Virus record (IMG/VR): IMGVR_UViG_3300027782_000075
Origin: an uncultured virus (IMG/VR IMGVR_UViG_3300027782_000075)
Lineage: Duplodnaviria > Heunggongvirae > Uroviricota > Caudoviricetes
DNA: 64,000 nucleotides
Reading direction: 5' to 3' (one strand)
Below the pieces are notes generated by a model. It had not been told where the DNA came from. It made no database searches and worked only from the letters and a program-made list of their open reading frames with translations. This document shows positions 25,696-36,499 of the stretch, piece by piece (the stretch's first letter is position 1; each line of letters begins with the position of its first letter). Position numbers and translations under genes: made by a program.

Positions 25696-26181
25696 TTATC
25701 CAAAAGATTTTTGAAATTCTGTCCAAACGTTTAATAAGACCACGTCATCGTACATTATAGGTGGTTCATATGCTGACCTACTCATTGACATTTTAGCCTC
25801 CTCAGGGGTCTTATTATCCTTCTGTCGATTACATTTGGAACAACAAGTTACCAAGTTTGTCCATTCGTTTGTTCCTCCTCTAGATTTTGGTAATACGTGG
25901 TCTAAGGTTAAATGTTTTTTTGACCCACAATAAACACATTCATATCCATCTCTTTTGTAGATTCTGCTACGGTTTGGTTTATTCAATCTTGTCCTATGTT
26001 TGATATATTTCAAAAGACGTATGATAACTGGTCGTACGTATTTGTTATACCCAGTAATGATTGGATTTTCCCCAGATCTTACAATTTCTGCCTTACCTTT
26101 GGTGACCAACACAAATCCTCTATGAACACTTGTCACGTTCAAGGGTGTGTAGTCAGAATTCAAAACTAATACTCTACTCAT
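25696..26181 (-). CDS. HNH endonuclease (McrA-like)
   Basis: Motifs VLVLNSDY.PL, CVYCG, TLDHVLPKSRGG and CCSKCN. Confidence 0.9.
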   Translation of the reverse strand: MSRVLVLNSDYTPLNVTSVHRGFVLVTKGKAEIVRSGENPIITGYNKYVRPVIIRLLKYIKHRTRLNKPNRSRIYKRDGYECVYCGSKKHLTLDHVLPKSRGGTNEWTNLVTCCSKCNRQKDNKTPEEAKMSMSRSAYEPPIMYDDVVLLNVWTEFQKSFG

Positions 26182-26334
26182 TTATCAAATGTTTCAACAA
26201 AAGTAATTTATTTTTTTTAGAAACGAAAGTTGTTGTGAATGAAAAATTTTATTACCTTTGTCATGTTGATTTGATGGAAGTACATCGTTGATTTTTACGA
26301 TAAAGAATATTATCATTGAAAACGAAGATAATAT

Positions 26335-26406
26335 GGACCCGTAGCTCAGAGGAAGAGCAGCGCTCTCATAAAGCGAAGGTCGGGATATCATGATTCCCCG
26401 GGTCCA
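26335..26406 (+). tRNA. tRNA with CAT anticodon (Met or Ile2), non-canonical T-loop
   Basis: Acceptor GGACCCG/CGGGTCC; loop CT-CAT-AA; T-loop ATCATGA. Confidence 0.7.
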
Positions 26407-26433
26407 CAAACAATTAAACTAAAACAAACTACA

Positions 26434-27165
26434 ATGAAAATCAAAAAATTAATCCTATCAGTTGTAACCCTATCCGTATTTTTAATTTCTTGTTCTAAAG
26501 AAGAAATTAATGGTAGTGAAATCACTCCTATCAATAATATGGAACATGCGACCATGTCAACATCAAGTATTGGTGGAGAACAAACACCTTTGAGAGCATA
26601 TATTTTTGTGGAACCAATGTCGAAACATGTGATGATTAAAAACCATTTGAATAAGTTACCATTTATTGGAAGACTCCCATTTGTTGGATTTCATGGTGTT
26701 AATGCAGGTGCATGGAAAGATAACTTACCAAATTATATTAATATGACTCATTGGATTGATGGTAGATTACCACAAATTATGCAAGTTGACATTCCCCAAA
26801 CAAGTGGAGGAATCGATACATTTGGTAATCCTGTTCAAGCTTTCAATTTCAAAACTGTTAAAATAACAAAAAATACAGTAAATGATAAATTTTCTTGGAT
26901 TATAGTTCTTATACCAATTAATGCGATGAGTAACGATACAAAAAGACAAAGAAGGATACGTATTGATGAAAAGGCGGGTAATATAACAAAATCTTCAACA
27001 ATTTTTACAACTGATAATGTTATGTCAGAAACTGTGATTAACTATAATGGTAATCGTATTCCGGCAGGTCAATATAGGGTTTATTCAACTTATCCATCAA
27101 GTGGTATGAGACTGAATTTGAACTCAACAAATGATGTTTATATTAGAGGTTTTAGTAACCAATAA
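26434..27165 (+). CDS. Putative lipoprotein
   Basis: Lipobox LISC. Confidence 0.7.
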   Translation: MKIKKLILSVVTLSVFLISCSKEEINGSEITPINNMEHATMSTSSIGGEQTPLRAYIFVEPMSKHVMIKNHLNKLPFIGRLPFVGFHGVNAGAWKDNLPNYINMTHWIDGRLPQIMQVDIPQTSGGIDTFGNPVQAFNFKTVKITKNTVNDKFSWIIVLIPINAMSNDTKRQRRIRIDEKAGNITKSSTIFTTDNVMSETVINYNGNRIPAGQYRVYSTYPSSGMRLNLNSTNDVYIRGFSNQ

Positions 27166-27172
27166 TTAATAC

Positions 27173-27247
27173 GCTCCTAAAGCATTGCTGGCGATGCACA
27201 TGACTTGTAATCATGATAACTTGGTTCGATTCCGAGTGGGAGCTCCA
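27173..27247 (+). tRNA. tRNA-Thr(TGT)
   Basis: Cloverleaf; CATGA-CTTGTAA-TCATG; encoded CCA. Confidence 0.9.
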
Positions 27248-27250
27248 ACA

Positions 27251-27426
27251 GTACTTACTACGCTACCCATAAGAACAGCGTCCCAGGGTAAGTCGTGTAC
27301 CTCGATGTTAACCGTAAGAACAACACAGAGGTTGTATCGTGATATAAGTGAATAGCCCAAGGTATAAGCTAAAATCACACCCCTAACCTCTATTCAAATG
27401 ACGATTTGATTATGTTAGGTTTTTTT
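27251..27426 (+). ncRNA. Candidate structured RNA with tandem hairpins sharing a 12-nt loop
   Basis: Loops ACCCATAAGAAC and AACCGTAAGAAC on different stems. Confidence 0.5.
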
Positions 27427-27514
27427 GGAGAGATGGCAGAGTTGGCCGATTGCACCTGACTTGAAATCAGGAGTACCTGTGAGGGTACCGTGGGTTCGAA
27501 TCCTACTCTCTCCT
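27427..27514 (+). tRNA. tRNA-Ser(TGA)
   Basis: CCTGA-CTTGAAA-TCAGG, long variable arm, GGTTCGAATCC. Confidence 0.92.
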
Positions 27515-27521
27515 CATCATA

Positions 27522-27616
27522 ATTGTGACGATTCGAAAGAATGACGGAACGGACGCTAAGAATGAAATGGAAACTGAAGGATTATCCTTGGAAACAAACC
27601 GTACAGACGTTACAAT
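27522..27616 (+). ncRNA. Candidate structured RNA, GGA-rich
   Basis: Closing stem ATTGTGACG/CGTTACAAT, a GAAA tetraloop hairpin and five GGA motifs. Confidence 0.4.
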
Positions 27617-27638
27617 CTTTTTCACAAATTAAATCATA

Positions 27639-27992
27639 ATGGCACATCCAAACTTACATGCAAAATCATCCGCCAAAAAGTTTGGTGGAAAACCTGAGGA
27701 CTACATTCATTTACATGAATGGTTAGACGAAACCAAGTCATGGTTTGGTGATTCCTTACATAGAATGTTTCGGCACCATAGTGAGGGGATATTCGAAATG
27801 GAAAAAAGGTTTGGTACCGAATTCAAAAACTCAGATGGAAAAACGGTTTATACTCGTTATGTTGGAGAACAACATATCAAGGAAGATTGTAATAACTACA
27901 TTCCATCAGCCAAAGAATGGGTTAACAACATGATGTCCAATCAAAGACCACAGTGGATGTTGAAGACCATTAAATTAGAATTCGAAGACTGA
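27639..27992 (+). CDS. DUF6915-like protein
   Basis: MAHP..HAKSSAKKFGG..EDY..LH.W.D; HR..RHHSEGIF. Confidence 0.75.
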   Translation: MAHPNLHAKSSAKKFGGKPEDYIHLHEWLDETKSWFGDSLHRMFRHHSEGIFEMEKRFGTEFKNSDGKTVYTRYVGEQHIKEDCNNYIPSAKEWVNNMMSNQRPQWMLKTIKLEFED

Positions 27993-28719: not shown

Positions 28720-29370
28720 ATGGTGGAAACAACAATTATCAACGAAGATTTTAGAAACTGCGACATACCAACAGGATTAACAATAACCGACCCACCTTAT
28801 AATCAAGAATATTCATACAACGAATACAAAGACAAGTTAACTGAACAGGATTATATTGAGTTATTATCCAAAATCCCAACTCCTTGTGTCATTATTCATT
28901 ACCCAGAAGAAACAATCAACTTGTTACCAAAGGCAATAAATGATAAATGTGAACAGGTTGTTTGTTGGGTGTATAACTCCAACACAGGGAAACAAAGTCG
29001 ATTGATATCATGGTGGGGTTGTAAGCCGGACTTCAGGAAAGTCAGACAGGAATATAAAAATCTCAAAGACAAACGTATTCAAAAAAGAATTGCTGAAGGA
29101 AAGACTGGTGCCAAACTTTATGATTGGTGGGAAATTAATCAGGTAAAGAATGTCAGCAAAGAAAAAACCGAACACCCTTGTCAAATTCCTGAGGAAGTAA
29201 TCCGAAGAATTATTTTGACAACCGCACAACCAAATCAAACAATTATTGATGTGTTCGGTGGAAGTGGGACGACAAGTAAGGTAGCTCAAGAGTTGGGATT
29301 CAACTCAATTAGTTATGAAATCGATGAGAAGTATTGTGAAATTATGAAACATCGGGTTGAAAGTATCTGA
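28720..29370 (+). CDS. DNA methyltransferase (N6-A/N4-C, beta-type)
   Basis: TDPPY precedes HPCQIP and DVFGGSGTT. Confidence 0.9.
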   Translation: MVETTIINEDFRNCDIPTGLTITDPPYNQEYSYNEYKDKLTEQDYIELLSKIPTPCVIIHYPEETINLLPKAINDKCEQVVCWVYNSNTGKQSRLISWWGCKPDFRKVRQEYKNLKDKRIQKRIAEGKTGAKLYDWWEINQVKNVSKEKTEHPCQIPEEVIRRIILTTAQPNQTIIDVFGGSGTTSKVAQELGFNSISYEIDEKYCEIMKHRVESI

Positions 29371-30043: not shown

Positions 30044-30205
30044 ATGTTCGGATTATTCAAGAAAAAAACAGAAAAAGAAAAATTACAGGAAACTTATGAG
30101 AAAATGATGGCAGATGCTTATAAATTATCTCATACAAACAGAACCGCATCTGACAAACTTCTGGCTGAAGCCGAAGAACTTGCGAAAAAAATATACGGTC
30201 AGTAA
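30044..30205 (+). CDS. Lacal_2735-family-like small protein (53 aa; not in ORF track)
   Basis: MFGLFKKKTEKEKLQETYEKMMADAYKLSHTNRTASDKLLAEAEELAKKIYGQ resembles the flavobacterial family from memory. Confidence 0.7.
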   Translation: MFGLFKKKTEKEKLQETYEKMMADAYKLSHTNRTASDKLLAEAEELAKKIYGQ

Positions 30206-30210
30206 TATTT

Positions 30211-30285
30211 GTCCCCGTAGCTCAGCTGGATAGTAGCGATTGCCTTCTAAGCAATAGGTCACACGTTCGAATCGTGTCGGGGATA
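30211..30285 (+). tRNA. tRNA-Arg(TCT)
   Basis: ATTGC-CTTCTAA-GCAAT; full cloverleaf. Confidence 0.92.
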
Positions 30286-30310
30286 CAAAATATTTCAGTA
30301 TATTTGTATT

Positions 30311-30399
30311 GTGATTGAGGAGCACGATTTAGATACACAAGCTCAATTACAAACTGGGTGACACGGGAACGATTCAGATACTAGTGTTACCCTTTTTTT
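30311..30399 (+). ncRNA. Candidate ~90-nt small RNA of two hairpins with shared ACGATTYAGATAC loop
   Basis: Own TATATTTG promoter; the second hairpin is followed by a U tract. Confidence 0.55.
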
Positions 30400-30468
30400 A
30401 TTAGATATCAGAATAAATAATTTTACAAAATAAAAATATTTCATACATTAGAAGTACTTATCAATACA

Positions 30469-30558
30469 ATGAGAACTACAAGTCAACATATTAACAGTAA
30501 TAGTCAACAAGAGAATTGTTGTTATGAAAGTATTTGCCCTGTAGTTCGGATGTCATAG
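30469..30558 (+). CDS. Putative attenuator leader peptide (29 aa)
   Basis: MRTTSQHINSNSQQENCCYESICPVVRMS*, overlapping alternative pairing segments. Confidence 0.55.
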   Translation: MRTTSQHINSNSQQENCCYESICPVVRMS

Positions 30559-30594
30559 AAAGTAATTTTTTAATTTAAGTTAAATTAAATTTTT

Positions 30595-30631
30595 AGACCC
30601 CGAACTCTTAAAAAAAGTTTGGGGTTTTTTT
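30595..30631 (+). terminator. Intrinsic terminator (attenuator 3:4 hairpin)
   Basis: AGACCCCGAACT/AGTTTGGGGTTT plus T run. Confidence 0.75.
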
Positions 30632-30683
30632 ATGACATGTTTTTGTTCTTTGAAATATTGTAGTATCTTTGTAAGACAAACAT

Positions 30684-30757
30684 GCTCCGGTCGTCTAATT
30701 GGTTAGGACATCCCCCTTTCACGGGGAAGCTTACGGGTTCGAGTCCCGTCCGGAGTA
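30684..30757 (+). tRNA. tRNA-Glu(TTC)
   Basis: TCCCC-CTTTCAC-GGGGA; cloverleaf. Confidence 0.92.
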
Positions 30758-30882
30758 CTGACACGAGAGGCAACCGAAGGCATACTAGACACTGTTTAGG
30801 CAATGGGAACGATCACACAGAATACCTCTCTCTCGTAGGTAAGTTTCAAGTTCTGTTGACTGTGGGGAAAGTCCCACTCTAT

Positions 30883-30971
30883 AGTCAGGTGGTGTAATGG
30901 TAGCACTCGGTGAAGTAGACGCAGTAATGTAGTCCCAATCCGTAGTACAGGTTCGAATCCTGTTCTTACTA
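30883..30971 (+). ncRNA. tRNA-like RNA 1 (AGTCAGG family), no canonical anticodon arm
   Basis: D-arm, T-arm ACAGG-TTCGAAT-CCTGT and acceptor-like stem; central arm ~35 nt. Confidence 0.6.
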
Positions 30972-30985
30972 CAAATAAAAAATAT

Positions 30986-31120
30986 ATGAAATGGATTATT
31001 AGACAATTTGGAAACGTATGGTGTTTATTTGTACATGGCTTTGTTTTAGATAAACACAAAATGCATAAAGCATATGGACCACAAGAATGTCAAAAATGTG
31101 GTAGGTGGTGGGATTTATAA
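30986..31120 (+). CDS. Small putative zinc-binding protein (44 aa; not in ORF track)
   Basis: MKWIIRQFGNVWCLFVHG...ECQKCGRWWDL*. Confidence 0.5.
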   Translation: MKWIIRQFGNVWCLFVHGFVLDKHKMHKAYGPQECQKCGRWWDL

Positions 31121-31127
31121 TAGTCAG

Positions 31128-31352
31128 GTGAAAAAATTAAAAGTTGTGGAAAAAGAAATAAGTAAAGAAACTGATGAGTTTATTGATAAATTAGACCATC
31201 TGTGTTGGGAACATGGCTTTGAAATTTGGCCAACTGACACTATTAACAAAAGAAATGAAGACGGCTCATATCCCACCTTTACTATTCATAATATAGGTAG
31301 TGGTGAAACAGTAAGATTGATATATGTCGATGGTGACGGAAGAGGTAAATAA
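31128..31352 (+). CDS. Hypothetical protein
   Basis: Likely GTG start inside an AGTCAGGTG copy. Confidence 0.45.
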   Translation: MKKLKVVEKEISKETDEFIDKLDHLCWEHGFEIWPTDTINKRNEDGSYPTFTIHNIGSGETVRLIYVDGDGRGK

Positions 31353-31359
31353 TTAGGCT

Positions 31360-31468
31360 AGTCAGGTGGCGGAATTGGTAGACGCTAGGGAGTTGGTACA
31401 AAAACTCTATCAGATGCATTGATAATGTACCTCATACATCATACAGGTTCGAATCCGGTTCTAACTAC
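31360..31468 (+). ncRNA. tRNA-like RNA 2 (AGTCAGG family) with extra central hairpins
   Basis: Leu-like D-arm GCGGAATTGGTAGACGC and GGTTCGAATCC. Confidence 0.6.
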
Positions 31469-31538
31469 GCAAAAAACAAATAAGATGGAGTTTCTTTACC
31501 CTTTCGAGGATGAGTTTTAGAAATCTAAATTATTATAT

Positions 31539-31610
31539 GGTGGCCGTAGCCTAGTGGGAGGGCGGAAGTTTGTGGCACTTCAGGTAAGAGTTCGATTCTC
31601 TTCGGTCACA
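31539..31610 (+). tRNA. tRNA-His(GTG)
   Basis: GAAGT-TTGTGGC-ACTTC; encoded G-1; A at position 73. Confidence 0.85.
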
Positions 31611-31614
31611 CAAC

Positions 31615-31682
31615 AGTCAGGTGGTGTAAATGGCAGCACACAGTAGTTAACTGAGGAGCGGGTTAGAAACCCGTCCTGACAC
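31615..31682 (+). ncRNA. tRNA-like RNA 3 (AGTCAGG family), shortened anticodon arm
   Basis: GTCAGG/CCTGAC stem, D-arm, CAG-TAGTTAA-CTG arm, T-loop TTAGAAA. Confidence 0.55.
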
Positions 31683-31691
31683 CTTATCAAT

Positions 31692-31765
31692 GGTCAGATA
31701 CCCAAGTGGCTTAAGGGGCTTGTCTGCAAAACAAGTATCCATCGGTTCGAATCCGATTCTGACCT
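31692..31765 (+). tRNA. tRNA-Cys(GCA)
   Basis: CTTGT-CTGCAAA-ACAAG; U73. Confidence 0.92.
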
Positions 31766-31783
31766 CATTTAATTAATTAAAAT

Positions 31784-32200
31784 ATGAAAATTGTAATTGT
31801 AAGCGGTTATTTTAATCCTGTTCATAAGGGACATATTGAATATTTCAATAAGTCCAAAGAACATGGTGATAAACTCTATGTTATCGTCAATAACGACAAA
31901 CAGAGAGAGTTGAAAGGTAGTAAAGAATTCCAAGATGAAGATGAAAGAATGTTCATCATCCAAAACCTTAAAATGGTTGATAGAGTATTTCTTTCAGTTG
32001 ACACAGATCGAACTGTGTGTAAGACAATCGAATTGATCCATTCTTTTGGGGATAGGGACGACGAATTCTTATTTGCCAATGGTGGGGACCAAAACAATAA
32101 TAGCATCCCTGAGACACCTATTTGTGATTGGTTGGGGGTTAAATTGATTGATGGACTTGGAGATAAAATCCAATCTTCATCTTGGTTGTTGAAGAAGTAA
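31784..32200 (+). CDS. Cytidylyltransferase-family (HxGH) nucleotidyltransferase
   Basis: Motifs SGYFNPVHKGH, VIVNND, FANGGD and KIQSSS. Confidence 0.85.
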   Translation: MKIVIVSGYFNPVHKGHIEYFNKSKEHGDKLYVIVNNDKQRELKGSKEFQDEDERMFIIQNLKMVDRVFLSVDTDRTVCKTIELIHSFGDRDDEFLFANGGDQNNNSIPETPICDWLGVKLIDGLGDKIQSSSWLLKK

Positions 32201-32271
32201 ACATCTATGGTGAAATGGCATCATACCGGATTCCAAACCCGTTGTTCCAAGTTCGAGTCTTGGTGGGTGTG
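32201..32271 (+). tRNA. tRNA-Trp(CCA), weak anticodon stem
   Basis: Acceptor ACATCTA/TGGGTGT; loop TT-CCA-AA; T-arm intact. Confidence 0.7.
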
Positions 32272-32282
32272 CAAAATGTAAA

Positions 32283-32487
32283 CTTCAGTACCCACACAGC
32301 AGTGGAGATGGGCTAAGTTAGATACGATTCCTCGTAGCTGGGAGTAGAATGCTGAAGAACATTTATAGGTTGATTGGGGAAGGAATGTATGTTAACCTGA
32401 TGATGGAGGTGGTACATTTGGAGTTTGGAATCATCGTAGTAATGCCAATCGTAAAAGGAGATGTCCACTGAACCATCTTCTCCTTTT
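32283..32487 (+). ncRNA. Candidate structured RNA(s)
   Basis: Stems CTTCAGTA/TGCTGAAG and GATTGG/CCAATC, a possible GATGAT/ATCATC pseudoknot, and a terminal hairpin. Confidence 0.4.
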
Positions 32488-32562
32488 CCTAATCTTTCAA
32501 AAAAAAATAAATAATTTTTTATTTTGATAGAAAAGTTTTATCTTTGTCTAAAATAATAAATT

Positions 32563-32991
32563 ATGACCATTTCTGAGACACAAAAAAATAAATTTTATGA
32601 GTTAGGGAATACATTACCAAAATGTGTAAATCCTGGATGTGAAAATGATGTTGCAGTCAGAAACTGGGGAAATTGGTCATTCAAATCAGAATGTTCTCGG
32701 TGTCAATCAGACAGAAAAAAGGGATTAATAAGGGAGGGTATCACAATTCATAAAAAAGAATATTGTGAAAATATTGACGGTCATTTAGGATTCAAATGCC
32801 CTGTTCCCACAAAAGAAAGTTGGAAAGGGTTTGAAATAGGATGTTTAGATTTGGACCACATAAATGGAGACCATAATAATAATTCAATTGAAAATGTTAA
32901 AACATATTGTAAATTGTGCCATAATAAAAAGAGCGTCGAAAGCGGCGATTGTTCTAATAAAAAAAAATCCGCAAGAATTTTTAATCACTAA
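32563..32991 (+). CDS. HNH endonuclease
   Basis: LDLDHINGDHNNN..ENVKTYCKLCH with N-terminal Cys pairs. Confidence 0.8.
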   Translation: MTISETQKNKFYELGNTLPKCVNPGCENDVAVRNWGNWSFKSECSRCQSDRKKGLIREGITIHKKEYCENIDGHLGFKCPVPTKESWKGFEIGCLDLDHINGDHNNNSIENVKTYCKLCHNKKSVESGDCSNKKKSARIFNH

Positions 32992-33788
32992 TGGAACAAA
33001 AAATTATTCATGAAGATTGTATTCAGGGGCTTAAAAAAATAAAAAATGAGATTATAAATCTAACATGGACATCACCACCATATTATAACGCTAAATCATA
33101 TAGTGAATGGCCAACATATCAAGACTATCTTGATTTCTTAAAAGATGTTTTCTCTGAAGTTTTTAGAGTTACTTTGCCAGGTAGAATGTGTATTGTGAAT
33201 CTTTCACCTGTAATTGTTCAAAGAGAATCTAGATCACATGAAAGTAAAAGATTGGCAATCCCTTTTCATTTTTTCACAATTATGGAATCTTTGGGTTGGA
33301 AATATATTGATGATATTGTTTGGGTTAAACCCGAAGGTTCTGCCATAAATAGAAACGGGGGGTTTTATCAACATCGTAAACCTGTTGCGTATAAACCTAA
33401 TTTAGTATCTGAAACTATTTTTGTATTTCAAAAACCAGCGAATTTTTTGATAGACAAAATTGTTAGGTCATATAATGGTGAAGATTTGGAAAAATCATTA
33501 GTTAAAGGTCACTATGAAAGGAGTAATGTTTGGTTAATCAACCCTGAAACAAAATCAAAACATTTAGCTCCATACCCTGAAAAACTATCGGATAATATAA
33601 TCCAATATTATTCTTTCTACGGAGATATTGTTTTAGACCCTTTTTTGGGATCAGGAACAACTTTACTTTCCTGTGAAAAATATGGTAGGAATGGTATTGG
33701 TTATGAAATTCATAAGGAATATGTGGAAATGTCTGAAAAAAGAATAGAAGAATATAGAAAGAACAATAATCAACAAGAATTATTTTAA
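32991..33788 (+). CDS. DNA methyltransferase (N4-C type, beta)
   Basis: Motifs TSPPY, HLAPYP and LDPFLGSGTT. Confidence 0.92.
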   Translation: MEQKIIHEDCIQGLKKIKNEIINLTWTSPPYYNAKSYSEWPTYQDYLDFLKDVFSEVFRVTLPGRMCIVNLSPVIVQRESRSHESKRLAIPFHFFTIMESLGWKYIDDIVWVKPEGSAINRNGGFYQHRKPVAYKPNLVSETIFVFQKPANFLIDKIVRSYNGEDLEKSLVKGHYERSNVWLINPETKSKHLAPYPEKLSDNIIQYYSFYGDIVLDPFLGSGTTLLSCEKYGRNGIGYEIHKEYVEMSEKRIEEYRKNNNQQELF

Positions 33789-33815
33789 GAAAACTTACTA
33801 TCTTTGTCGCGATTT

Positions 33816-33850
33816 GGACTCTACAGCAGGTTCGAGTCCTATCGGTCCCA
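33816..33850 (+). pseudogene. Mini tRNA remnant (acceptor plus T-arm only)
   Basis: GGACT...AGGTTCGAGTCCT...GGTCC behind a TATCTTTG promoter. Confidence 0.45.
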
Positions 33851-33851
33851 C

Positions 33852-33932
33852 AAGACAGACACACGCTTCCCACGGTGTTAAAGTACAAGGATAATGAAGA
33901 GAATAATACGTCTCCTAAGGTCTGTCTAAACT
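33852..33932 (+). repeat. 81-nt structured element, copy 1
   Basis: Identical to 35105-35185; closed by AGACAGAC/GTCTGTCT. Confidence 0.9.
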
Positions 33933-34002
33933 GTCTCATGGTGTAACGGTAGCACAAGTCACTTTGGTTGACTTAGTTCAGGTTCGAATCCTGATGAGAT
34001 AT
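33932..34002 (+). tRNA. tRNA-Gln(TTG)
   Basis: AGTCA-CTTTGGT-TGACT; cloverleaf. Confidence 0.9.
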
Positions 34003-34007
34003 CAAGT

Positions 34008-34056
34008 TATTCATGTTCCAAAACATGAAAAAACAGTAAGTTTTGGAACATGAATA
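34008..34056. repeat. Perfect 17-bp inverted repeat between tRNAs
   Basis: TATTCATGTTCCAAAAC / GTTTTGGAACATGAATA. Confidence 0.8.
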
Positions 34057-34140
34057 GAGAATTGCCTGAGTGGTTAAAGGAGCAGATTGCTAATCTGTCA
34101 TCTCGAAAGGGATGCATTGGTTCGAATCCAATATTCTCTG
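34056..34140 (+). tRNA. tRNA-Ser(GCT)
   Basis: GCAGA-TTGCTAA-TCTGT, long variable arm, G73. Confidence 0.9.
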
Positions 34141-34145
34141 CATTT

Positions 34146-34288
34146 TGTAAGGTGTTGAAATTGGCAGACAATCCCCGCCTGTCTCGTGGGGGAGGATCAT
34201 CTGATAAACGAAGGATAATGGGTTGACCACAATCATGTAATGTCCTTTGGCTAAAGACCTCGTGGTGGTTCGAATCCATCTCTTACAG
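34146..34288 (+). tRNA. tRNA-Asp(GTC)-like RNA with ~70-nt variable-region expansion
   Basis: Acceptor TGTAAGG/TCTTACA, G73, CCCCGC-CTGTCTC-GTGGGG, T-arm GGTGG-TTCGAAT-CCATC. Confidence 0.65.
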
Positions 34289-34297
34289 CATAAAAAA

Positions 34298-34371
34298 GCG
34301 GGTATAGCTCAATTGGCTAGAGTGCCGTCCTTCCAAGTCGGAAGTTGTGAGTTCGAATCTCACTACCCGCT
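34298..34371 (+). tRNA. tRNA-Gly(TCC)
   Basis: GCGGGTA/TACCCGC; CT-TCC-AA; U73. Confidence 0.92.
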
Positions 34372-34387
34372 CTTTTACTTACAATAA

Positions 34388-34461
34388 TGGAATATAGCTC
34401 AGTTGGTTAGAGCGCTATCCTGATACGGTAGATGTCGGTGGTTCGAGTCCACCTATTCCAA
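34388..34461 (+). tRNA. tRNA-Ile(GAT)
   Basis: CTATC-CTGATAC-GGTAG; cloverleaf. Confidence 0.9.
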
Positions 34462-34462
34462 C

Positions 34463-35104: not shown

Positions 35105-35185
35105 AAGACAGACACACGCTTCCCACGGTGTTAAAGTACAAGGATAATGAAGAGAATAATACGTCTCCTAAGGTCTGTCTAAACT
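35105..35185 (+). repeat. 81-nt structured element, copy 2
   Basis: Identical to 33852-33932. Confidence 0.9.
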
Positions 35186-35227
35186 ATCCTATGGTGTAAC
35201 GGTAGCACAAGAGATTTTGGTTCTCTT
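35185..35227 (+). pseudogene. 5' half of a second tRNA-Gln(TTG), truncated after the anticodon arm
   Basis: TATCCTA-TGGTGTAACGGTAGCACA-AGAGA-TTTTGGT-TCTCT, then a terminator. Confidence 0.7.
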
Positions 35228-35259
35228 AAAAAAAAACCCACCTTTCGGTGGGTTTTTTT
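35228..35259. terminator. Bidirectional terminator
   Basis: A run, ACCCACC-TTTC-GGTGGGT, T run, between convergent units. Confidence 0.8.
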
Positions 35260-36499
35260 ATAACATCTTTTTTATTTTTTCTATATTCTCGTTTACTTTT
35301 TTTCGATTGAATGGGTCTTTCAAAAAGTTTAATACGAATGGGTCAACTTGTTTTTTATCTGCGACACCACCAAATCGTTTTTCAGTTCTATCACCTTCTT
35401 TGTTATATTTATCTTGGAATATGCTGAGAGGTGCCTTCATTAATGCCGCCATTAATGGATCCCAATATTCAGGTTCTGACGAACCTTTCTTTTTTTCAGA
35501 GTCTTTTTCAACTTCTTTTCCTATTGTTTTTACATTCTCATATGTAATAGGTATTCTAGACCATTTATGATCATACAATGTAACCTCAACATCAGAATCT
35601 GTGTTACCTAATACACTACCGGCACTTACAACATCTCCAGTTGAAAGGGAAGGATTTGATATTCCACAATATTGTAGATATTTGGTCCCATTATTATCAT
35701 ATTCAATTGTTGTCTGATTTACACAACCTGAAAAAAATTTTCTATTATTAATTTTTCCCGAAATAGGAGATTTAATTTTTGGATTGTCATCTTTTGGAAT
35801 TATAATTCTACCATATCTGTCCGAGGTATTTTTCCCAAAATTTCTATTTTCAAATATCCCTAGTTTTTCATAATTTACGTTACCGACTAATGGTGCGTAT
35901 TCTGTTGGGCCACTTGGTCCAAATGAAATAACATCTGACACGTCGCTCGATGATGTACTCGAACTTGTTGTTGTTCCTGATTTTTTTTCTGGAGTTGTGA
36001 TAGGGCCTGTCAAATTTATCCCTTCTTTGTTTAAGTAGTCCATCGGATTAATCGGTTGACCATCTTTTTCCAATCCAAAGTGCAAATGTGGCCCATCACT
36101 TCTGCCTCGTCCAACATCATTCGGGCCTCCTCCGCTTATACCTATAATGTCGCCTTGTCTTACTTGTTGACCAGGAGAAACATTAATTTTTTTCAAATGA
36201 CAATATTTAGTTTTGAACCCGCTAGAGTGATTGATTTTTACAGTACCTCCACAATCATCATCCAATATTGCTCCAACTTCTACAATACCGTCGGCTGCGG
36301 ATTTGACATTTGCATTATTCGCAGTCAAATCTACTCCACGATGAAGTCTTCCCCACCTCGGGCCAAATGGTGAGGTTACGGATGTATTATCCACAGGAGA
36401 AATAAACGCAGCCTCATTAATTGATGAAACTTCTTTGATAGAATTTTTTAACAATTCAAGTTCCTCAAATATTCTTGAAATATTTTTTTCGATACTCAT
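35258..36499 (-). CDS. M23-family peptidase, probably virion-associated
   Basis: Motifs HRGVD, YCHL and GPHLHF; second degenerate M23-like domain; start at MSIEK. Confidence 0.85.
   Translation of the reverse strand: MSIEKNISRIFEELELLKNSIKEVSSINEAAFISPVDNTSVTSPFGPRWGRLHRGVDLTANNANVKSAADGIVEVGAILDDDCGGTVKINHSSGFKTKYCHLKKINVSPGQQVRQGDIIGISGGGPNDVGRGRSDGPHLHFGLEKDGQPINPMDYLNKEGINLTGPITTPEKKSGTTTSSSTSSSDVSDVISFGPSGPTEYAPLVGNVNYEKLGIFENRNFGKNTSDRYGRIIIPKDDNPKIKSPISGKINNRKFFSGCVNQTTIEYDNNGTKYLQYCGISNPSLSTGDVVSAGSVLGNTDSDVEVTLYDHKWSRIPITYENVKTIGKEVEKDSEKKKGSSEPEYWDPLMAALMKAPLSIFQDKYNKEGDRTEKRFGGVADKKQVDPFVLNFLKDPFNRKKVNENIEKIKKML

Follow-up and report, generated by a model that had tools for sequence, protein, structure and literature searches.

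The ilvL leader of the ilvGMEDA operon and thrL are multivalent leader-peptide attenuators of enterobacterial amino-acid operons, whereas in trpL and hisL a single codon is repeated in a run and a single amino acid is sensed. The pheM-pheST leader attenuates an aminoacyl-tRNA synthetase operon, with a single amino acid sensed and a protein gene controlled, and T-boxes bind uncharged transfer RNA (tRNA) directly, with no need of an open reading frame (ORF). Here we describe a related arrangement in a 64,000-nucleotide stretch of DNA from an uncultured tailed virus (IMG/VR record IMGVR_UViG_3300027782_000075), the whole of which we call the window. The element at 30469-30631 is, in our assessment, likely to be a translation-sensing, ribosome-mediated (leader-peptide) transcription attenuator that gates a block of phage tRNA genes, so that tRNA output by the phage probably rises when those tRNAs become scarce for the ribosomes.

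Like ilvL and thrL, the element has a short leader, presumably translated, whose codons represent several amino acids, together with an intrinsic terminator and hairpins that would exclude one another (2:3, 3:4 and a putative 1:2); by analogy, the multivalent ilv and thr leaders would be its closest precedents. It differs from them in three respects: (i), its target would be tRNA genes and not biosynthetic enzymes; (ii), it samples a wider set of amino acids, as many as about 13, most of them through one to three codons; (iii), it stands in a phage of a Bacteroidetes-type host and has no sequence or Rfam similarity to them. Unlike in classical attenuators, several such leaders are used along one tRNA array. 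With trpL and hisL the element would share the logic by which a stall at hungry codons frees segment 2, while a ribosome at the stop codon, or no ribosome, leads to termination; unlike in those leaders, codons 2-4 make up segment 1, and the loop of the putative 1:2 hairpin contains the sampled codons. As with pheM-pheST and T-boxes, a part of the translation apparatus would be regulated by tRNA charging, but the leader ORF sets the module apart from T-boxes, and the many amino acids and the tRNA genes set it apart from pheM.

As far as our searches show, leader-peptide attenuation is described for amino-acid and synthetase genes and not for tRNA genes within the literature searched. Searches of the open full-text literature returned no account of tRNA genes, or of phage tRNA arrays, controlled by a leader peptide; an older description may exist in subscription journals or supplements. 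An attenuator-like leader of the E. coli tRNA-Phe genes was considered and dropped as a precedent, the upstream region of K-12 pheV showing a plain promoter region only. Rfam gave no family, T-box or known leader at E <= 1 in 30287-30683, the weak leader-family matches being confined to 35179-35288 and below gathering scores, and PHROGs gave nothing for the leader peptide.

The leader ORF, the segments of the 1:2, 2:3 and 3:4 pairings and the terminator all lie where the original prediction, made from the sequence alone, had placed them, and the module is composed as follows (lengths in nucleotides, nt).

30421..30451, + strand: upstream promoter-like site P1, with -33 box TTTTACA (30421-27), -7 box TACATTAG (30444-51) and a 19-nt spacer; from alignment and sequence
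30469..30558, + strand: leader ORF of 29 codons, ATG at 30469 to TAG at 30558, peptide MRTTSQHINSNSQQENCCYESICPVVRMS; read directly from the sequence
30473..30480, + strand: segment 1, GAACTACA, codons 2-4, partner of segment 2; from sequence and folding
30505..30521, + strand: apex hairpin CAACAA-GAGAA-TTGTTG within the ORF (Gln-Gln ... Cys codons); from folding, its pairs 91-100% kept in relatives
30540..30549, + strand: segment 2, TGTAGTTCGG, with segment 1 and segment 3 as alternative partners; from sequence and alignment
30550..30596, + strand: AT-rich spacer with the stop codon (30556-58) and an inner hairpin (30569-89), predicted to join 2:3 in an extended antiterminator (-15.6 kcal/mol)
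30597..30631, + strand: intrinsic terminator, with segment 3 ACCCCGAACT (30597-606), a loop, segment 4 AGTTTGGGGT (30616-25) and a T-run to 30631; -15.3 kcal/mol by folding
30642..30671, + strand: second promoter-like site P2, with TTTG (30642-45), an 18-nt spacer and TATCTTTG (30664-71), including the block CTTTGAAATATTG; from sequence and alignment
30684..34462, + strand: downstream tRNA group Glu(ttc), Tyr(gta), His(gtg), Cys(gca), Trp(cca), Gln(ttg), Ser(gct), Gly(tcc), Ile(gat); from tRNA predictions, Rfam and PHROGs

Segment 2 consists of two overlapping sub-blocks, TGTAGTTC at 30540-47, which faces segment 1, and AGTTCGG at 30543-49, which faces the segment 3 core CCGAACT (30600-06) inside the 5' arm of the terminator. 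The terminator was judged by folding, since its loop exceeds the 8-nt limit of the hairpin scanner used, which omits 30597-30631. The stop codon begins 7 nt past segment 2, a position that lets a terminating ribosome cover segment 2; in relatives its place ranges from just before segment 2, in type B modules, to about ten codons beyond it. The first tRNA behind the module is tRNA-Glu (30684-30758), and small ORFs, an HNH endonuclease and a DNA methyltransferase are interspersed among the tRNAs that follow.

Relatives were collected from IMG/VR through a marker protein (27639-27992), which has 347 relatives there, of which the best 80 loci were analysed; the nearest record, G001, is 100% identical over 30150-31000 and served as reference for the window's genome. 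Several of the 80 loci are on contigs of about 320 kilobases (kb), and Ribosomal_S21 scores above the Pfam cut-off in G001 and in two of these ~320-kb relatives, which places the window among the freshwater bS21 phages of PMC9723584; a bS21 motif was not found in the six frames of the window itself. Phages of this group carry 5-25 tRNA genes per genome according to PMC9723584, where the passages on tRNAs only predict and count them and where the words 'leader' and 'attenuat' are absent from the main text. A profile of 30420-30675 found 110 strong copies of the module (48 distinct); three were cut by contig ends and 46 distinct complete copies, 67-98% identical to the window at the DNA level, were kept. 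Of the 53 matches to the pattern TTGTTGKTATGAR...GTAGTTC, 13 were dropped as chance occurrences inside unrelated genes with no tRNAs nearby, and a distant blastn of 30150-31000 against the phage GenBank collection returned tRNA-to-tRNA matches only and none to the module.

In these relatives the module occupies the centre of a tRNA array with conserved synteny, in most cases at 40-60 nt 5' of tRNA-Glu, and the ORF, whose loss the original prediction had named as grounds for refuting it, is retained: an ATG-started frame of 25-36 codons is open in all 46 distinct complete copies, while over the same span frames +1 and +2 contain 123 and 163 stops (means of 2.7 and 3.5) and are closed in 46 and 45 of the 46, respectively. 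Indels within the leader ORF are 3 nt long. The segment TGTAGTTCGG is conserved as nucleotides, but most copies translate it as C-S-S-D and the window clade as P-V-V-R; being kept and yet translated in two frames, it is constrained as RNA and not as peptide.

We regard the match between leader codons and downstream tRNAs, which recurs across paralogous modules and lineages, as the strongest evidence for an attenuator. In the window, the nine downstream tRNAs can read 16 of the 28 leader codons (the whole ORF minus Met1, as in all such comparisons), where 29% would be expected from window ORFs of at least 200 residues (binomial p = 0.0017), and AGT makes up four of the five Ser codons against an AGY background of 22% (p about 0.01). 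The codon counts first given for the leader hold except for AGT, which occurs four times and not three. Weak secondary matches of the profile turned out to be paralogous modules built on the same plan of promoter, small ORF, GAAC/GTTC-type segments and terminator, which an ad hoc rule sorts into types A, B and C. Type A leaders, rich in Pro, Asn, Asp, Gly and Thr (for example MKTMNTNTNLDTPTTPNGDAGTICVSSEASGW and MKTMNTNTNLDTPTTPNGDAGT...), stand before Pro, Asn, Asp, Gly, Thr and Ala tRNAs. The type B leader MRTTLLHTLLLDRQGLLRRLMP, with TTA five times, CTT twice, CTA once and AGA four times, is followed by tRNA-Leu(taa), Arg(tct) and Leu(tag), and in loci that have no type B module the Leu and Arg codons are found in the type A leader and the Leu and Arg tRNAs in its group (for example MTTLNTLNRLALAPTNDGTGN...). 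Leaders of type C, the window's own type (for example MKTTIKHMVFSTQQKSICWYERM...), precede Glu, Val, Phe, Lys, Cys, Trp, Tyr, Met, Gln, Arg(acg), His, Ser and Ile. One locus (L082) divides the third group between two leaders, MRTSINHISSFVEQHEVCFSFGMRC before Val, Glu, Phe, Phe, His, Ser and Met, and MKPINKNMISKRQPQISICWYPRITHSSVIGESNIS before Pro, Ile, Cys, Trp, Tyr, Gln, Arg, Met and Ser. The window clade, which has no downstream Val, Phe, Lys or Met tRNAs, reads INSNS in its leader where other copies read MVFST. No type A or B module was found in the window itself, which gave a single nhmmer match only, and inspection of 26100-27660 showed a plain promoter-like box ahead of the first tRNA.

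Counted over all modules, the enrichment for a leader's own tRNAs is general. It is found in 57 of the 57 distinct modules with enough downstream sequence: the observed means are 0.62 by amino acid and 0.53 by codon, where window ORFs of at least 200 residues lead one to expect 0.36 and 0.28, respectively. Loci with two or three modules contribute 1106 leader residues, of which 703 stand for amino acids served by the leader's own tRNA group alone and 272 for amino acids served by the other groups alone; own exceeds other in 35 of 39 leaders and falls below it in three, all of type B, whose own-only set is Leu alone. Synonymous Arg codon choice also follows the downstream isoacceptor: excluding codon 2, Arg codons ahead of tRNA-Arg(acg) are CGT (14), CGC (5) and AGA (1), and those ahead of tRNA-Arg(tct) are AGA (27) and CGG (2), for a background use of 0.71 AGA and 0.11 CGT. 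A terminator-type scan among the 80 loci with 2.5-kb flanks added at least 16 leader/tRNA combinations to the earlier modules, in more distant contigs with other tRNA orders; in nine of 16 among the matches listed, half or more of the leader residues belong to the leader's own tRNA set. Two of these listed matches illustrate the range: MKNTNKNMTRVAKATTKGGDRNTTLGLGCIMSLMDG (MKNTNKNMTRVAKATTKGGDRN...) stands before Thr, Lys, Lys, Asn, Arg, Val, Ala, Met, Gly and Gly with a gap of 8 nt (L167), and MKNMNLHIAVIKPMAVCQWYPRAVSGSDQVFS stands before Pro, Pro, Lys, Cys, Trp, Leu, Val, Tyr, Ala, Gln, Met, His, Arg and Ile (L139). The proposal that the leader samples the codons of the tRNAs behind it is borne out, paralogous leaders of the same phages differing in composition and each matching its own group.

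The alternative structures can be recognized by folding and, in part, by covariation. The 173-nt stretch has a minimum free energy (MFE) of -36.7 kcal/mol (z = -3.16; two of 200 shuffles fold as well), and the MFE structure holds 1:2 together with 3:4. The 1:2 hairpin (8 bp and an inner stem) is computed at -17.8 kcal/mol, the terminator at -15.3 and the extended antiterminator, made of the 2:3 pairing and the folded spacer, at -15.6; the latter is the predicted fold when the ribosome A site is at codons 7 to 20. On a MAFFT alignment of the 46 sequences (A1), the terminator is paired in 98.3% of cells and is recovered by RNAalifold. The 2:3 helix is paired in 84% of cells against at most 44% when the partner is slid, and contains 21 double-change cells against 9.1 in shuffles, with none of 500 shuffles reaching 21. 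Pair 112-178, for example, occurs as GC (27), AU (8) and GU (3), and pair 110-180 as UA (38), UG (4) and CG (3). In several clades the terminator loop extends the complementarity to segment 2 (for example CTGTAGTC with GACTACAG in L041), and among the distinct combinations in type A modules, 10 of 13 have a first loop base that pairs with the nucleotide 5' of the segment 2 core (AT 5, TA 4, GC 1). The terminator hairpin itself cannot account for this last pairing, which lies outside its stem.

The spacing of type A modules bears directly on read-through. In 10 of 17 distinct cases, 5, 5, 5, 5, 6, 8, 13, 16, 17 or 20 nt separate the T-run from the first tRNA, which leaves no space for a promoter, and transcription of these type A tRNAs must therefore pass through the terminator.

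From these comparisons we infer that the leader ORF is translated, that ribosomes stall in it and that read-through is regulated, in the following way. A short transcript would start at the promoter, and ribosomes would translate its 29-codon ORF as RNA polymerase advances. A ribosome running smoothly to the stop codon would cover segment 2, 3:4 would pair and transcription would end at 30631; if no ribosome loads, 1:2 would form and the terminator would form again. When an aminoacyl-tRNA for a sampled codon is scarce, the ribosome would stall in the ORF, blocking segment 1 and leaving segment 2 free to pair with segment 3 in the extended antiterminator, and the polymerase would continue into the tRNA genes. 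The circuit would act as an OR-gate over many codons and, since the sampled codons belong to the downstream tRNAs, would be a negative feedback on the phage's own tRNA supply.

Several observations weigh against this reading, and the first concern the promoters. The promoter-like sites of the region fit TTTG-N19-TAnnTTTG, TTTG and TAnnTTTG being the Bacteroidetes promoter consensus, and in relatives the P1 position aligns as TTTGACA-N19-TAnnTTTG. The window copy deviates at both boxes, with TTTTACA for TTTGACA and TACATTAG for TAnnTTTG, and a 134-nt element with its own terminator is inserted directly 5' of it, where in the closest relatives tRNA-Arg adjoins P1; the window copy may thus be weaker, or weakly expressed, compared to that of relatives. 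Between the terminator and tRNA-Glu, a P2-type site (TTTG-N18/19-TAnnTTTG) is kept in the window and in nearly all type C copies, its 'nn' positions differing among relatives as would be expected of a real promoter. The original prediction had raised such a promoter behind the terminator as a caveat and was right to do so. With P2 conserved, tRNA-Glu has its own route, to which read-through would add, and read-through cannot be the sole way to these tRNAs; in the window and most type C copies the controlled genes have a promoter-like site of their own and so do not depend on read-through. A search for the strict TTTG-N19-TAnnTTTG pattern missed both module promoters of the window because P1 is degenerate and the P2 spacer is 18 nt.

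Other reservations concern the leader codons. The window leader has three Asn codons and the window has no Asn tRNA, although in close relatives a tRNA-Asn is found behind the module (L008, L005 and L133). Among the matches listed from the terminator-type scan, seven of 16 combinations match poorly (< 0.3), some of them probably through mis-called ORFs or arrays truncated by the 2.5-kb flank. The sampled codons mostly appear singly or in twos and not in runs, which makes the sensitivity of the device uncertain, and the Gln-Gln...Cys-Trp codons overlap a hairpin, so that RNA structure may partly impose them. All copies are moreover related by descent and their counts are not independent events, which makes the recurring rearrangements the more telling evidence.

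The pairings are unequal too. The 2:3 and 3:4 helices are kept in relatives, which favours the original prediction, since it had named loss of the pairings as a refutation; the 1:2 helix, paired in 79.9% of cells, shows little covariation and is absent from the RNAalifold consensus. Coevolution is modest outside the conserved GAAC/GTTC core: cognate against swapped segment 2/3 duplexes give -12.6 versus -11.0 kcal/mol in type C (21 of 39 rows) and -11.2 versus -10.3 kcal/mol in type A (15 of 22), so a swap costs on average only about 1-1.6 kcal/mol. Predicted antiterminators beat shuffles (z < -2) in 20 of 22 type A modules, but in 19 of 39 of type C and one of seven of type B, in a test whose window missed segment 2 in copies with long ORF tails. 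As to RNA, twenty metatranscriptome runs contain parts of 30290-30900, and among the contigs of the four runs examined, three from different libraries or studies span the terminator into tRNA-Glu (X1, 30544-30869; X4, 30523-30709; X2, 30558-30708). They are compatible with read-through; they also carry no transcript ends or levels, and could stem from DNA carry-over. The contigs of the four runs do not cover 30406-30507, which is uninformative either way.

Two rival explanations deserve discussion. The small ORF could be an independent gene for a micropeptide of about 30 residues with its own promoter and terminator, the tRNAs being transcribed from their own promoter only and the pairings incidental. 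The window layout of promoter, ORF, terminator and second promoter would suit such a gene, as would the conserved peptide motif H...QQ(E).CW(Y)(E). Against it, the C-terminal part of the peptide switches reading frame with its nucleotides unchanged, three paralogous peptides that share no sequence each mirror the tRNAs behind them, down to the synonymous Arg codons that follow the isoacceptor, and the 5-20 nt left before the tRNA in type A modules do not agree with tRNAs served by a promoter of their own; nor does the peptide match a PHROG family. We consider this explanation unlikely.

Equally doubtful to us is that leader translation acts by a route other than the 2:3 antiterminator, for example through protection by ribosomes from Rho or ribonucleases, or through pre-tRNA processing or stability. 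The codon match establishes a link to translation and does not by itself prove a terminator switch, and antiterminator predictions are weak in type B (one of seven) and in half of type C. The intrinsic terminator and its T-run are nevertheless invariant in all copies, and segment 3 and its loop covary with segment 2. That the element is a non-coding small RNA, or a mere terminator and promoter with a chance open frame, would fit a short structured transcript and the lack of a protein family match but is very improbable, given a frame open in 46 of 46 copies where the others average 2.7 and 3.5 stops, indels of 3 nt, a composition that tracks the tRNAs and the absence of any Rfam match in the region.

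The attenuator interpretation is therefore the one that comparison with bS21-phage relatives supports. We also lean, with less assurance, towards a broader proposal in which the array works as a tRNA homeostat: it would be divided into sub-operons, each gated by a leader built from the codons of its own tRNAs, any shortage would stall the ribosome and open the terminator, and the system would shut off once phage tRNAs accumulate. Shortage could have its source in a codon-usage mismatch with the host, in starvation or in host tRNA-cutting nucleases, the trigger that the original prediction had put forward as a possibility. This would make it the first case of tRNA genes autoregulated via translation speed, as well as a sensor, encoded by a virus, of the state of translation in the host. 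If the proposal holds, transcription of tRNA genes would be subject to feedback from the speed of translation at defined codons, which would account for the conserved grouping of tRNAs in these arrays and provide a testable link between phage tRNAs and tRNA-targeting host defences. Compact, modular codon-availability sensors of this kind could be used as reporters, and a simple genome-wide search for short ORFs 5' of tRNA genes with matching codons would become possible.

Some further features of the modules were noted along the way. The block CTTTGAAATATTG (30646-30663), which lies between the terminator and the -7 box of P2 and occurs once in the 64-kb window, is nearly invariant in the 46 diverged copies; it appears conserved beyond the needs of a promoter spacer, and could be a site for a regulator or belong to the read-through RNA. 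In type A modules (for example L021, 8629-8791) only about 4-6 nt separate the end of a -7-like box, TAATATTG, from the leader ATG, a distance so short that the leader messenger RNA may be leaderless or nearly so. In Bacteroidetes-type hosts, translation initiates without Shine-Dalgarno pairing. In the spacer that separates segment 2 from the terminator, type A modules also conserve a hairpin (TGGTTGG ... GCCAA). At four loci (L065, L069, L070 and L064) a protein-coding ORF or 285-1144 nt lie behind the type C terminator before the next tRNA, and the same leader may also gate protein genes there.

The surroundings of the module hold other elements. Right after tRNA-Arg, an element of about 110 nt (30287-30400) carries a TATATTTG box of its own (30299-306) together with a terminator at 30357-30400, GGGTGACAC...GTGTTACCC with a T-run; copies 92-95% identical to it are found in many relatives, about 450 nt from the leader module, making it a candidate small RNA or mobile promoter-terminator cassette. 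A similar motif, GGGAACGAT, occurs after tRNA-Glu (about 30806-30814). Further upstream, a tRNA with anticodon CAT at 26335-26406, absent from the ARAGORN list, scores 47.5 bits in Rfam, with a TACCTTTG box ahead of it at 26253-60. Two DNA methyltransferase-like ORFs and one HNH endonuclease-like ORF are situated among the tRNA genes (28720-29370, 32563-32991 and 32991-33788), and the spacing and order of tRNAs vary among relatives at such insertions, which suggests that the array is reshuffled by mobile genes.

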